From Clostridia bacterium (GTDB taxonomy: Bacteria; Bacillota; Clostridia; Oscillospirales; QAKW01), in assembly GCA_017937065.1 (NCBI GenBank), contig JAGBEI010000009.1:13942-77941 (forward strand): a stretch of DNA of 64,000 nt. The letters run 5' to 3'. Both the position numbers and the translations under genes were made by a program. The stretch's first letter is position 1, and every line of letters begins with the position of its first letter. Shown here piece by piece: positions 2,963-6,537 of the stretch. Under the pieces are notes generated by a model. The model was not told the origin of the DNA, made no database searches, and saw only the letters and a program-made list of their open reading frames with translations.

Positions 2963-3148
2963 ATGAAGAAATGGTTAAAAGCTGCGGGAATACGAGCAAT
3001 AAAGACTGTGGCGCAGTCAGCCGCTGCGGCAATCGGCACGGCAGCCGTGCTGGGAGAAGTCAACTGGACGGCGGTCATAAGTGCGTCGGTGCTGGCGGGC
3101 ATTCTGTCGCTGCTGACCTCCGTGGCGGGACTTCCCGAGCTGAAATGA
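2963..3148 (+). CDS. Holin (phage r1t-type)
   Basis: WLKAAGIRAIKTVAQ...VNW...SLLTSVAGLPE signature, 61 aa. Confidence 0.88.
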   Translation: MKKWLKAAGIRAIKTVAQSAAAAIGTAAVLGEVNWTAVISASVLAGILSLLTSVAGLPELK

Positions 3149-3159
3149 GGTGACGGCAA

Positions 3160-3777
3160 ATGACAAACCTGCCTGTAAGCGGCATATTCACGGTGACGGC
3201 GACCTACGGACAGACGGGCAAGTACTGGGTAAACGGACATCGCGGCATTGACATTACCTGCGGCAAGCGGGAGGTATATGCAACCTGTGACGGAGTTGTG
3301 CGCGTGGTATCATACGACAGCGGCGGCTGGGGCTATTACATATCCGTAGGCGACGGCAGCGGACAGCGGCATATATTCTGCCACCTTGAAAAGGGCAGTA
3401 TAAGAGTAAAGGTCGGACAGAGTGTCGACCGCAGTACGGTGATAGCAAGAATGGGCAGCACGGGAAACAGCACGGGCGTGCATCTGCACTATCAGATAAA
3501 CAATGCTGACAACGTACCCGTAAATCCCTGCCCGCACCTTGGAATACCCAATGAAAAGGGAATATACGACAGCGCGGATTATAAGATAAAGGAGACGGAC
3601 GACATGACATTTAAGGACGCAGACAAAATAGGCAAGTGGGCGCGTGAGGCGGTGGACAGAGTATCCGATAAGGGGCTGATGCTGGGCGACAGCGACGGTT
3701 ACTTTAACCCCAAAAACCCGCTTACAAGAGAAGAGGCGGCGGTTATAATCGAGCGTCTGCTTGATTTGATTAAATAA
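3160..3777 (+). CDS. Endolysin: M23 peptidase plus C-terminal SLH domain
   Basis: HRGID and HLH zinc motifs; FKD...WAREAV...GLMLG...FNPKNPLTREEAA SLH motif. Confidence 0.88.
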   Translation: MTNLPVSGIFTVTATYGQTGKYWVNGHRGIDITCGKREVYATCDGVVRVVSYDSGGWGYYISVGDGSGQRHIFCHLEKGSIRVKVGQSVDRSTVIARMGSTGNSTGVHLHYQINNADNVPVNPCPHLGIPNEKGIYDSADYKIKETDDMTFKDADKIGKWAREAVDRVSDKGLMLGDSDGYFNPKNPLTREEAAVIIERLLDLIK

Positions 3778-3800
3778 AATAAAAAGCAGGATTTATGAAA

Positions 3801-3817
3801 TGCACTCTTAAGGACAG
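3801..3817 (+). repeat. Left arm of 17-bp inverted repeat (partner 5059-5075)
   Basis: TGCACTCTTAAGGACAG versus reverse complement of 5059-5075 TGTACTCTTAAGGACAG, 16/17 identical. Confidence 0.8.
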
Positions 3818-3827
3818 CAAAAAAGTT

Positions 3828-3947
3828 ATGAATGAAACTTTACGCCACTTAGAGCAAAAACGAATTGCCGTTGAGCAAAATATTTAGGCGCTATATGAAA
3901 CCTTGAAAAAAGAAATCAACGAACATTCAAAGATATGTTGTATCTAA
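3828..3947 (+). pseudogene. Gene remnant with in-frame TAG
   Basis: MNETLRHLEQKRIAVEQNI*ALYETLKKEINEHSKICCI*, no clear RBS, ends at a bidirectional terminator. Confidence 0.3.
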
Positions 3948-3955
3948 TATAAGCA

Positions 3956-3993
3956 AAAAAGAAATGAGGGCTTTGTTTTCCCTCATTTCTTTT
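3956..3993. terminator. Bidirectional intrinsic terminator
   Basis: AAAAGAAATGAGGG...CCCTCATTTCTTTT. Confidence 0.75.
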
Positions 3994-4700
3994 TAATAGT
4001 TTGGCATTTGTTCGTATTCGGTAACGGTGCTTTCGTAATAGTCTAATGCATCTGTTACCTGCTTTGAGGTCAATCCTAAATGCTTTAACCACTTTTTATA
4101 TTCAGAATATTGTTCTTCTTTTTCATTATTATCATTTTCGTAAGTATCTTTAATTTGTGCCCATTCATCATTTGTATTGCTGTTTTTCCAAGAATACCTT
4201 TTTCCAATCAATGAGTTAGTGATTTTTTGAAAACAAATTTCGAATTCGGAATCATAAACAAAAATATATCTTGTTGTATATGTACTTGTTGTATATGTAC
4301 GTGTCATTTCGGAAGCTTTAAAATTATATCCATTTTCCTCTAAATAAGAAATAACTTGCCAATCAGAATATGCAGAAACATCTTCATCAAATGATACATC
4401 GCCGGTAATCGAACGATTAATCGTAGGAGTTAATACAATAGAAGTAATTGCAATGGTAAATACAATTAAAGAAACAACTAATTTTGCCAAGTTTTTATTA
4501 TCCCTTGAGTACTTATAACACCAAACACAAAAAACAATCAATGAAACTATTAGTGCCATCAAAGCAAATACCGGTATTATAATTGTAGACGGGTAATTCA
4601 TAGTATCCAATTCCCAAAGAAAAGCAACTATAAAAAATAAACTTATAAAAGAAATTATAGATACAATAACAGTGACGACAATTTTAATCCAATTTTTCAT
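3993..4700 (-). CDS. AT-rich accessory membrane protein (3 N-terminal TM helices plus soluble domain)
   Basis: Start ATG 4700 after GGGGG RBS (MKNWIKIVV...); the longer ORF call runs into the RNA leader. Confidence 0.7.
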   Translation of the reverse strand: MKNWIKIVVTVIVSIISFISLFFIVAFLWELDTMNYPSTIIIPVFALMALIVSLIVFCVWCYKYSRDNKNLAKLVVSLIVFTIAITSIVLTPTINRSITGDVSFDEDVSAYSDWQVISYLEENGYNFKASEMTRTYTTSTYTTRYIFVYDSEFEICFQKITNSLIGKRYSWKNSNTNDEWAQIKDTYENDNNEKEEQYSEYKKWLKHLGLTSKQVTDALDYYESTVTEYEQMPNY

Positions 4701-4721
4701 TTTACATTCCCCCACATTATA

Positions 4722-4892
4722 TAAAAAGTGTGTGCAATCGAAATCGCACACACTGAAAAATGCTCGACTTCGATTTGCTACCACACAAAACTCCACACTC
4801 CACACAGAAATGCGAAATAAGAAGTCAGCACTTTTACCTAAGTAAAATGCCCACTTCCGTGTGGAAAATACATTTTGGAGTTTTATGTGGTG
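4722..4892 (-). ncRNA. Candidate structured leader RNA/attenuator
   Basis: Long nested stems with G-U pairs on the minus strand only, then a UUCG-capped terminator and competing antiterminator; starts just after a sigmaA promoter. Confidence 0.65.
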
Positions 4893-4897
4893 CTTTT

Positions 4898-4926
4898 ATT
4901 ATATCACTATTTAATTTTATTGTAAA
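4898..4926 (-). promoter_or_regulatory. sigmaA promoter of the leader RNA/membrane gene
   Basis: TTTACA-17 bp-TATAAT with TG extension. Confidence 0.7.
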
Positions 4927-5018
4927 GTACCGCTTTAAGTTTGTCGCATACTCTAACAAGCAGGGAAAATGTACGTTATTTTCCAAAATCTTTAGGATAT
5001 CCTAAAACCTTATATAAC

Positions 5019-5052
5019 AAAAAGCAGAAACGAGAAATCGTTTCTGCTTTTT
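5019..5052. terminator. Bidirectional intrinsic terminator
   Basis: AAAAAGCAGAAACGA-GAAA-TCGTTTCTGCTTTTT. Confidence 0.75.
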
Positions 5053-5058
5053 AAATAA

Positions 5059-5075
5059 CTGTCCTTAAGAGTACA
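5059..5075 (-). repeat. Right arm of 17-bp inverted repeat (partner 3801-3817)
   Basis: CTGTCCTTAAGAGTACA. Confidence 0.8.
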
Positions 5076-5190
5076 ACTCTTACGCCATGCTTTTTTATTT
5101 TGCTAAAATAATACTCTATGTATCGCAGAAAATGAAGAATGTTTGCTGAATAATTGTAAACGGCAGTAATTTTCTCGGCGGTTTCGACAT

Positions 5191-5934
5191 TTAATCAAAT
5201 TCGGGCAAACCGTAATTTTTCAGCATATATTCCTTTGCTTGGATTGTCCGGCATTCCTCACAGCACTTCGCTTTTTTGCTTTGTTCAATGCTACCTTCTT
5301 TTACATTGTCTCTATATGCCAAATAACTGCACAGACGATATAAGTGATATTCGTCGCTGTCTTCGGTATAATATACCGTTTTTGAGTTAAGTCCCGTTTT
5401 ACCTTCATCAGCTTCAGTCAGTATCCTTTTTATGTAATCCGTGGAGACAGTTACAGCTCCGCCCGTATCTTGACTTTTAAATTTCTGAACAGTTGCAGCG
5501 GCAAACATAACTATTAAGATAACCGAAAGCAAATAAATACCGTGTCTGCAAAGCCTGTTTACGGCAGACACAGTAAAGTAAAACATATTCGCCTGCCATT
5601 CTTTCCATGTAGATGTATTATGTATTAATTCATTACCGCAAGCAGTATGTTCAAGATAAATGTGACCTTCTTCGTGCAGGAGTAATATTATTTTATCCCT
5701 GTCAGTTAAATTGCTTTTTATAAATATATATTTTGAGGAATTACCAATATAAGTAAAGCAATTATAGTATTTTATGATTTCGGTGAGTTGCAGTTCTTTA
5801 ATTAAAGTATCTTCAAATGAAGAGAATTCTATAACATCGAAACCTTGACTTTTTAATAAGTTATAGCAGCTTTTTAATGTTATTTCTTTTTTGTAAAATT
5901 TGCTCTCAATAAGAAATTTAATAGACCTTTTCAT
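5191..5934 (-). CDS. ImmA/IrrE-family metallopeptidase domain with TM helix and C-terminal Cys/His domain
   Basis: LLHEEGHIYLEH...EWQAN motif; TM segment; VYYT...YH...CSYL...CCEEC. Confidence 0.7.
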   Translation of the reverse strand: MKRSIKFLIESKFYKKEITLKSCYNLLKSQGFDVIEFSSFEDTLIKELQLTEIIKYYNCFTYIGNSSKYIFIKSNLTDRDKIILLLHEEGHIYLEHTACGNELIHNTSTWKEWQANMFYFTVSAVNRLCRHGIYLLSVILIVMFAAATVQKFKSQDTGGAVTVSTDYIKRILTEADEGKTGLNSKTVYYTEDSDEYHLYRLCSYLAYRDNVKEGSIEQSKKAKCCEECRTIQAKEYMLKNYGLPEFD

Positions 5935-6065
5935 TTTTAACCCCCAAAATGTTTGATGATATGAGCTTAACTCTGAAAAGGTTATATTTCTACTGGTAAA
6001 ATTTGGCGGACTGAATTATAGAGCTTAGAAATTTATAGTATATGCTTTGCCATATCTAATTTTAC

Positions 6066-6140: not shown

Positions 6141-6184
6141 AATCCCTTGTATACGCTTGGTTTCCCAAGCGTATACAAGGGATT
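6141..6184 (-). terminator. 20-bp perfect hairpin downstream of tmRNA
   Basis: AATCCCTTGTATACGCTTGG-TTTC-CCAAGCGTATACAAGGGATT. Confidence 0.7.
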
Positions 6185-6190
6185 GTCTGT

Positions 6191-6537
6191 TGGTGTAGGC
6201 GAGGGGAGTTGAACCCCTGTCCGAAAACTTTGTTGCATCGCTTTCTACGGATATAGCTTTATATTTGCATTCCCTCCAAACGCCGTCATAAAGCAAACTG
6301 CGTTTTTCGGTAGCTTCATATTACAGACAGCCGCGCAAAGCTTTGCGGTATCCGTTCACCACTGAATGTGACACCCTCCTGCGCCCGTGGTCCCTCGCAT
6401 TCGGATGACGCCGCTTAAGCAGCGTAAGCTAATTTATTATTGTTAGCGTTTAATTTTAAATTGCACATTTTAAAGCGGTTGTGCGCCGCTATCCGCTTAC
6501 GGTGCCGTCCGGTCCCCGTCGAAACCATTGCGCCCAC
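6191..6537 (-). ncRNA. ssrA: tmRNA; tag peptide (A)ANNNKLAYAA
   Basis: 5' GTGGGCG...GGTTTCGACGGGG; 3' T-arm GGGGTTCAACTCCCC and CGCCTAC-ACCA with G3-U70; tag ORF 6447-6415; smpB nearby. Confidence 0.96.

Follow-up and report, generated by a model that had tools for sequence, protein, structure and literature searches.

A promoter-anchored leader RNA family of gut Clostridia with five competing helices, a probable transcription attenuator

Introduction

In the pyr leaders of B. subtilis, a helix located upstream ties up the antiterminator strand and thereby lets the terminator form, as described in the available part of PMC4347634. The leader RNA analyzed here resembles them in possessing such an anti-antiterminator tier, a helix between an apical segment X and a tail segment (X:tail), but differs in having two more upstream tiers and in an anti-antiterminator that spans from a rod apex to the tail. 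According to the portion of PMC12667848 at hand, fluoride, ZTP, lysine and TPP riboswitches likewise have a 5' structured domain sharing strands with a terminator platform, the overlap of aptamer and platform can co-vary, and covariation of the whole switch has been modelled for known riboswitches. Unlike those riboswitches, the leader has no Rfam match, few invariant unpaired bases, a platform as conserved as its 5' domain and no metabolic theme in its genes. In the P4 CI RNA, one segment is complementary to sequences both upstream and downstream and governs premature termination (excerpt of PMC4825925), an arrangement that the leader shares. By contrast, pairing in the leader is in cis and copy-specific, an intrinsic terminator is accompanied by a co-varying antiterminator, the location is mostly chromosomal, and there is no evidence of processing or trans action. 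The drum, skipping-rope, FuFi-1 and DUF3800-I motifs also place an intrinsic terminator after a structured RNA, but they seldom occur in 5' UTRs and are associated with DUF3800-type genes (as far as the available text of PMC5737381 goes), whereas the leader family resides in 5' UTRs. Finally, the ANTAR element consists of two hairpins with six-base loops carrying A at position 1 and G at position 4 (available section of PMC3369931). In a few copies, the first part of the tail looks like a single small ANTAR hairpin, and the source genome encodes one ANTAR protein, but the dual hexaloop hairpin was present in 0 of 168 copies (a single one in 3 of 168), and this class was rejected.

The locus lies in a window of 64,000 nucleotides, the whole stretch of DNA that was analyzed. 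We assign a probability of about 0.72 to the reading that its ~170-nt promoter-anchored leader is a cis-acting, five-helix transcription attenuator with PyrR-like logic, in which termination and switching are predicted. The helices, the way in which they co-vary and overlap, promoter spacing and gene context are properties of the sequences themselves, while the folding order and the near-equal energies of the alternative folds are computed.

Results

A promoter-anchored rod followed by a predicted terminator

The leader unit is composed of the following features, all on the minus strand.

4898..4926, minus: sigma-A-type promoter, with −35 at 4926-4921, a 17-nt spacer and a TG-extended −10 at 4903-4898; predicted +1 at about 4891
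4876..4891, minus: P1 5' strand, from the predicted +1; 97.9% of cells paired, double changes at 4 of 13 pairs
4867..4875, minus: A-rich asymmetric bulge at the P1/P2 junction; two A columns conserved in 81 and 79 of 82 homologues
4852..4866, minus: P2 5' strand, variable in sequence with pairing preserved; top shared with Y
4842..4857, minus: Y, upstream partner of X in an extended apical hairpin that includes the P3 5' arm
4821..4837, minus: X, apical segment pairing alternatively with Y or the tail
4798..4812, minus: P2 3' strand, predicted to displace the lower part of Y:X
4780..4795, minus: P1 3' strand, placed by fold, base-by-base check and alignment
4755..4778, minus: tail, antiterminator strand against the terminator core at 4747-4734, or partner of X via 4771-4756
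4723..4754, minus: predicted intrinsic terminator, a 12-bp stem at 4754-4727 (1 G-U) with a UUCG loop and a U run to 4723
4709..4713, minus: G-rich ribosome-binding site, read from the sequence

Base-by-base inspection bore out the elements put forward in an earlier, sequence-only reading: a sigma-A promoter with a 17-nt spacer and TG extension, the P1-P2-P3 rod (also recovered by folding), a 12-bp UUCG terminator with a U tract about 20 nt before the ATG at 4700, and an antiterminator strand at 4778-4761 complementary to the terminator core, which forms part of the minimum-energy fold. The U run ends 22 nt upstream of that ATG. The terminator is thus located between promoter and first gene, as in an attenuator, and is accompanied by a conserved, mutually exclusive antiterminator.

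With 11 of 12 consensus bases plus the TG extension, the promoter ranked top of 12 sites in 3500-6000. Because 9.8 such sites are expected there by chance, the promoter call rests on family spacing. In 61 of 78 homologues, 6 nt separate the end of the −10 element from P1 although the promoter sequences differ, while only 7 of 307 control windows showed a promoter at 4-9 nt. Given that this spacing is held despite differing promoters, P1, and with it the rod, likely begins at the predicted +1. A perfect 15-bp hairpin is also located upstream of the promoter at 5019-5052.

P1 pairs 4891-4877 with 4794-4780 (14 Watson-Crick pairs and 1 G-U, extendable to 16 bp), and P2 pairs 4865-4852 with 4812-4799 (12 Watson-Crick pairs and 2 G-U, for a helix of 14-15 bp), with P3 as a hairpin with a single bulge at 4850-4828. 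Two further helices compete with these. The extended apical hairpin joins 4857-4842 to 4837-4821 at the expense of the top of P2, and Y can also pair, in its 5' part, with the P2 3' strand. The apex-tail helix joins X at 4835-4821 to the tail at 4771-4756 over 15 bp (−16.5 kcal/mol, predicted); it is modelled to act as an anti-antiterminator and would constitute a pseudoknot if the rod stays closed. The alternatives therefore overlap in a chain: P2 with Y:X, Y:X with X:tail, X:tail with the antiterminator, and the antiterminator with the terminator. Both helices had been missed when a two-state switch was first proposed, so that the terminator/antiterminator part of that proposal stands within a scheme of more tiers. 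A U run in Y, an A run in X and a U run in the tail (4821-4850, 4755-4762) are conserved together, and a U-A-U triple helix of these three homopolymer runs within the pseudoknot is possible.

Covariation of the competing helices

A set of homologues was collected by pattern matching (129 matches; 117 complete, distinct copies; 91 after limiting identity to under 90%, with a mean of 62%). Alignment used 82 of the 91, with the 9 longest left out, and the swap test used 90, one copy being without an anchor. In the swap test, each segment's own partner is compared with partners taken from other copies; it was adopted because MAFFT misaligns the variable rod. A second set of 78 was found with a covariance model that contained neither the X:tail nor the antiterminator pairs (88 matches, from which 2 antisense, 4 pattern-matching, 3 near-duplicate and 1 short one were removed).

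In the pattern set, own partners were strongly preferred for X:tail (z −11.3), tail:terminator (−11.6), Y:X (−14.3), P2-3':Y (−18.3), P2 (−37.4) and P1 (−24.6), while six control pairings stayed at |z| < 2. The model-found set gave −14.5, −12.3, −12.1, −16.8, −36.2 and −27.3 for the same pairings, again with all six controls at |z| < 2; here P2 is given from centred z and rank counts, its raw means being inflated by a failed duplex. Kinship was handled by swaps between nearest relatives rather than by a tree: in 72 pairs, own partners were better, worse or tied in 26/8/38 cases for X:tail, 40/10/22 for the antiterminator and 32/6/34 for Y:X.

Of its own accord, RNAalifold picked X:tail together with the terminator; three of the pairs carry 34, 20 and 14 double changes. 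P1, X:tail and terminator jointly showed 96% of cells paired and 200 double-change cells, compared with 58.8 in shuffled alignments and 4-45 in slid controls. For the antiterminator helix, 87.3% of cells were paired with a double change at 7 of 12 pairs, but in alignment A1 its variation was mostly one-sided G-U and its double-change pair count was reached in 41 of 500 shuffles, and so did not go beyond shuffling. Extension of the antiterminator into P1 showed no covariation (z −0.5 in the model-found set). In the divergent copies of locus L176, X, tail and terminator are altered together. The results support the earlier claim of a switchable leader with a predicted, mutually exclusive terminator and antiterminator. 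Transcription from the minus strand had been deduced from mismatches that read as G-U on that strand and A-C on the other; among the 82 aligned homologues, G-U exceeded A-C in all four counted helices (23:2 cells in P1, 102:25 in the apex-tail helix, 126:14 in the terminator and 151:44 in the antiterminator), consistent with that deduction.

Near-invariant unpaired positions are few: two bulge As, the GG before X and three loop positions. The spacing between X and the end of P1, on the other hand, varies little, at 55-62 nt in 76 of 90 copies. A long subtype of about 200-225 nt carries extra 5'-strand sequence (L144, L184, L190, L191, L194, L195, L213, L128 and L016), and in it, as read by eye, the A run of X is looped rather than paired in the apical hairpin.

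As a rival reading, a leader peptide could start at an AUG or GUG inside X, with the translating ribosome blocking X. An AUG, GUG or UUG is present there in 115 of 168 copies, and this copy has a frame of 17 codons that runs from 4833 to the stop at 4782-4780. The other 53 copies, however, carry other triplets (28 ACG, 7 AUA, 4 GCG and others), the frames vary from 1 to 30 codons or run without a stop inside the element (31 cases), and the tail compensates for a U-to-C change (6 C-G cells, columns 82-170). Neither a conserved start codon nor a conserved frame was found; such a ribosome-controlled attenuator is highly improbable and was rejected.

Energetics and a proposed folding relay

The 181-nt stretch folds at −72.2 kcal/mol, compared with −39.5 +/- 3.8 for shuffled sequences (z −8.58; 0 of 200 shuffles were as stable), and its minimum-energy fold includes the antiterminator. 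In this copy, terminated and antiterminated folds are both predicted at −72.4 kcal/mol, and the predicted gap between them has a median of 0.25 kcal/mol over 90 copies; by a second measure, the folds are no more than 3 kcal/mol apart in 103 of 168 copies. The fold locked by Y:X is 0.5 kcal/mol above the minimum. In predicted nascent folding, Y:X is best at 75-90 nt and its lower part is displaced by P2 by 100 nt. In 150 of 168 early folds the 3' half of X is engaged with upstream sequence, and once the rod has closed it is unpaired in 108 of 168. Opening X within the rod costs about 6 kcal/mol versus about −15 gained, the pseudoknot penalty being excluded from this sum. A 15-bp helix in a closed loop exceeds one turn, and it may form incompletely or require opening of the rod.

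These predictions can be arranged in a relay. The apical hairpin Y:X would form first and hide X. Closure of the rod would then allow the P2 3' strand to take the lower part of Y, freeing the 3' half of X, which could pair over 15 bp with the tail as it emerges, making a pseudoknot with the closed rod. With the tail lost to the terminator core, the terminator would form and the gene would be OFF. Alternatively, persistence of Y:X would leave the tail free for the antiterminator, and the gene would be ON. Because all tiers co-vary, the whole folding relay is directly testable by compensatory mutants.

The near-equal energies would also suit a fixed dimmer, in which equal-energy folds give constant partial read-through that, in the absence of any signal, limits how strongly newly acquired envelope genes are expressed from a strong promoter. 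Consistent with this, many copies have folds within the 3 kcal/mol counted above, the predicted balance of the nested folds is unmoved from 20 to 50 C, the target genes are unrelated and invariant unpaired positions are few. However, a one-helix weak terminator would suffice for that task, and it is difficult to account for five competing helices that co-vary unless control is conditional, making the dimmer quite unlikely.

Given a conditional attenuator, the favoured trigger, held tentatively, would be a host protein that reads the shape of the rod and biases folding toward the rod-pseudoknot OFF fold, by analogy with PyrR and its anti-antiterminator. Polymerase speed alone and a small ligand are rated nearly as likely, in that order. 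The few invariant unpaired positions, combined with the little-varying X-P1 distance, would fit recognition of shape or timing better than a metabolite pocket. A new riboswitch class, in which the apex grips the tail, the pseudoknotted pocket receives a signal and the regulon comprises up to a dozen surface or accessory genes per genome, is doubtful; if true, it would include genomes such as the source genome that are without a c-di-GMP synthase. Discovery of the trigger would bring to light either a novel RNA-binding regulator or ligand, or a natural transcription-speed sensor.

Several known classes were tried and rejected. The PyrR binding-loop consensus was present in 0 of 168 copies with no pyrimidine genes downstream, and the T-box bulge consensus in 1 of 168 (relaxed) or 0 of 168 (strict) with no Rfam match. 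For BglG/SacY RAT, the consensus was found in 0 of 168 copies and no PF03123 (CAT_RBD) in the 99.7%-complete genome. TRAP and GEMM were likewise rejected by pattern in the 168 copies. A c-di-GMP riboswitch had no Rfam match and the genome no GGDEF domain; a cold-shock protein as trigger was rejected with no such domain in the genome; and for LoaP the sole model match was below the cut-off and is probably NusG. Autoregulation by a recurring small downstream protein was rejected as well, since the source genome yielded no member of the three non-zinc-ribbon families (8, 4 and 3 loci). The genome encodes RNase III and a mini-III-sized protein, which is neutral on rod cleavage. Its ANTAR protein (G000:C23:64675-66501) is encoded directly after a glutamine-synthetase-like gene (named by eye).

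Downstream genes and action in cis or trans

An ORF led by a ribosome site follows within 160 nt in 146 of 169 copies, and within 35 nt in 113. By heuristic prediction, lipoproteins make up 24 of these 146 downstream proteins versus 53 of 1789 crude ORFs in the genome background, and exported or membrane proteins 84 of 146 versus 518 of 1789; the remaining 62 of 146 look soluble, and no pathway is common to the downstream genes. Their Pfam families (102 and 55 proteins scanned) include BspA LRR, SHOCT, zinc ribbon, SPFH, SLH, TerB, HTH, AMP-binding and others, and many have no family. Upstream neighbours are assorted and largely housekeeping genes (64 of 131 scanned).

At this locus, the promoter-RNA-terminator-gene layout in a prophage accessory slot, with a hydrophobic and uncharacterised protein, had suggested a toxin-antitoxin or abortive-infection arrangement, in which the RNA is the antitoxin of a toxic membrane protein. 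That suggestion is not supported. The downstream genes are many and mutually unrelated, which argues against a toxin-antitoxin pair with a fixed partner toxin gene; the 3993-4700 protein matched no family in Pfam (at the cut-off), PADLOC or PHROG, with an Atlas best score of 0.77, below chance level; three relatives and two paralogue-linked genes were without a PADLOC match as well; and the RNA has no internal repeat array. We consider an antitoxin RNA hardly credible.

Whether the RNA works on its own transcript can be judged from partner preference. The X of this copy pairs at −16.8 with its own tail versus −7.1 to −8.2 with the tails of its three paralogues in the genome, the preference that a cis switch should show. 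The centred X:tail energy is −4.2 in cis, −0.97 for same-genome pairs (n=92) and 0.07 for other genomes; one paralogue's X pairs slightly better with another copy's tail (−15.8 versus −14.0). This bears on an antisense immunity of the P4 CI/C4 type, in which X of a mature RNA pairs with the tail of new transcripts in trans and silences its own and sister copies. X is indeed complementary to upstream and downstream segments, as CI is with seqA and seqC in the available part of the P4 report (PMC4825925), and a superinfection-immunity domain occurs in 1 of 102 downstream genes. By contrast, same-genome copies cross-pair poorly, X of the terminated RNA would be occupied by its own tail, and the family is rare in viral contigs, so that such immunity is very improbable.

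Tandem arrays of 2-3 divergent copies occur at L176:277-833, L177:1012-1354, L178:2798-3169, L204:1291-1669, L216 and L218, the downstream members having their own promoter directly after the preceding terminator. At least 16 of 168 copies are gene-less and 7 are upstream members of tandem arrays, and they retain the X:tail helix. The antiterminator looks weaker in gene-less copies, significantly so in the pooled data (p 0.026 and 0.004) but not in the model-found set by itself (p 0.059 and 0.135). These copies raise the alternative that the terminated RNA is itself the product, a stable trans-acting small RNA, with read-through merely setting the downstream mRNA side ratio. The start of P1 at the predicted +1, tandem copies each with promoter and terminator, the X:tail helix kept in gene-less copies and the tight X-to-P1-end distance would all fit, and drum, skipping-rope, FuFi-1 and DUF3800-I are precedents of structured RNAs ending in terminators (PMC5737381, available text). 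However, the antiterminator co-varies and no partner protein family travels along: upstream genes are assorted and the commonest small downstream family (8 loci) is not found in the source genome. We therefore regard a small RNA as unlikely and retain the cis-acting attenuator.

That small family comprises recurring, helical-looking proteins of 38-70 aa directly after the leader (L032, L069, L086, L161, L173, L176, L192 and L221); the members scanned had no Pfam match, and the search found none in the source genome.

Distribution of the leader family

DNA search found matches in 11 of 61 related genomes, two of them to the promoter only. An exact pattern matched at least 120 loci, for an estimated total of about 310, labelled Clostridia, Acutalibacteraceae, Oscillospiraceae, Ruminococcus and similar. 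The covariance model found 4 copies in the source genome and matched at least 50 of 151 genomes of the order, at least 39 of 151 of the class (where a single genome carries as many as 13) and at least 2 of 151 of the phylum, both Clostridia; these counts are lower bounds, as 18 candidates were scored per genome. An element tied to prophages, as originally supposed, is at odds with this distribution: viral contigs contained 1 match to the first exact pattern and 2 to a second pattern versus the ~310 estimated in genomes for the first, and among the 20 of 35 matches listed, annotated phage genomes gave just 29-nt chance matches (E 0.8). The family is widespread in gut Clostridia and mostly chromosomal, not prophage-specific.

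The sequence-only reading could match the element to no known RNA, and the catalogues agree. Rfam 15 on 3500-6000 gave a best E of 0.54, the sole overlap with the element being LPR10 at E 2.1, below the gathering threshold, and Rfam on 40 homologous loci gave 0 matches on the element. We found no published description, and an unnamed candidate may be present in the alignments of Fremin 2021 (PMC8040213), Weinberg 2017 (PMC5737381) or the 2023 viral set (PMC10690425). Judged from its sequences, the leader family is real, conserved and uncatalogued. Carried by a quarter to a third of the Clostridia genomes sampled, and missing from Rfam, such a leader would represent a major and so far overlooked level of regulation for surface proteins of uncultured gut and rumen bacteria. 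The Gut-1 RNA (RF01706) is located beside tRNA genes in two leader-bearing loci (L012:678-756 and L024:1989-2062).

Relatives of the element were present in contigs of 7 of 7 RNA runs (among the runs listed, 13 recorded as RNA contain a small share of the stretch), none of them being this locus, and one 758-nt RNA-library contig, about 98% like L009, spans the terminator into downstream genes. Such contigs give no strand, ends or level and may derive from DNA, and thus speak only for the occurrence of homologues in RNA libraries. In 4 of 4 RNA runs, contigs end 4-29 nt inside the predicted +1; because contigs also break at strong hairpins, these ends are not start-site evidence.

The cassette and its prophage setting

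The element is part of a 31% GC cassette (genome 46%) located between a holin/endolysin pair and an ImmA-like gene beside the tmRNA, as follows.

2963..3777, plus: prophage holin and M23/SLH endolysin (context)
3802..3817, plus: cassette right boundary site, inverted copy of a repeated 16-nt motif
3956..3994, no strand assigned: perfect 15-bp hairpin carrying runs of A and T; the unit probably ends here in a bidirectional terminator
3993..4700, minus: downstream gene, 235 aa with a hydrophobic N-terminal half; 7 database matches including itself
5059..5074, minus: cassette left boundary site, the same 16-nt motif inside a small palindrome
5191..5934, minus: ImmA/IrrE-like metallopeptidase gene (context)
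6191..6537, minus: tmRNA, likely prophage attachment site

Inverted 16-nt motifs bracket promoter, RNA and gene with the same polarity at three loci: this one, L058 (2194/3574) and L195 (1023/2261). The motif is a separate repeat, with 56 matches in 25 of 151 genomes versus 5 for a reversed control. It follows the A run of a split terminator and is often near contig ends, and at two motif loci the adjoining ORF reads by eye as a REP-associated tyrosine transposase. The leader RNA was found in 0 of 19 motif loci, and the 8 motif matches in viral contigs fall in unrelated viruses, none with the leader RNA. The motif may mark the ends of a mobile cassette that brought the unit into the prophage. 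After the right boundary site, an interrupted coding-like stretch at 3830-3950 (plus strand) points, by eye, at the bidirectional terminator.

Phage head- and tail-like ORFs, read by eye, are located upstream on contig C3, and the 3' end of the tmRNA recurs with 29 of 31 bases at G000:C18:5315-5345 (L226), beside a tyrosine-integrase-like ORF also read by eye. Together they make a prophage likely, with the repeat on C18 as its likely other end. The ImmA/IrrE-like peptidase has a hydrophobic segment and a Cys/His-rich C-terminus and is located at the prophage lysis end, not beside a repressor. A perfect 20-bp hairpin follows the tmRNA at 6141-6184.
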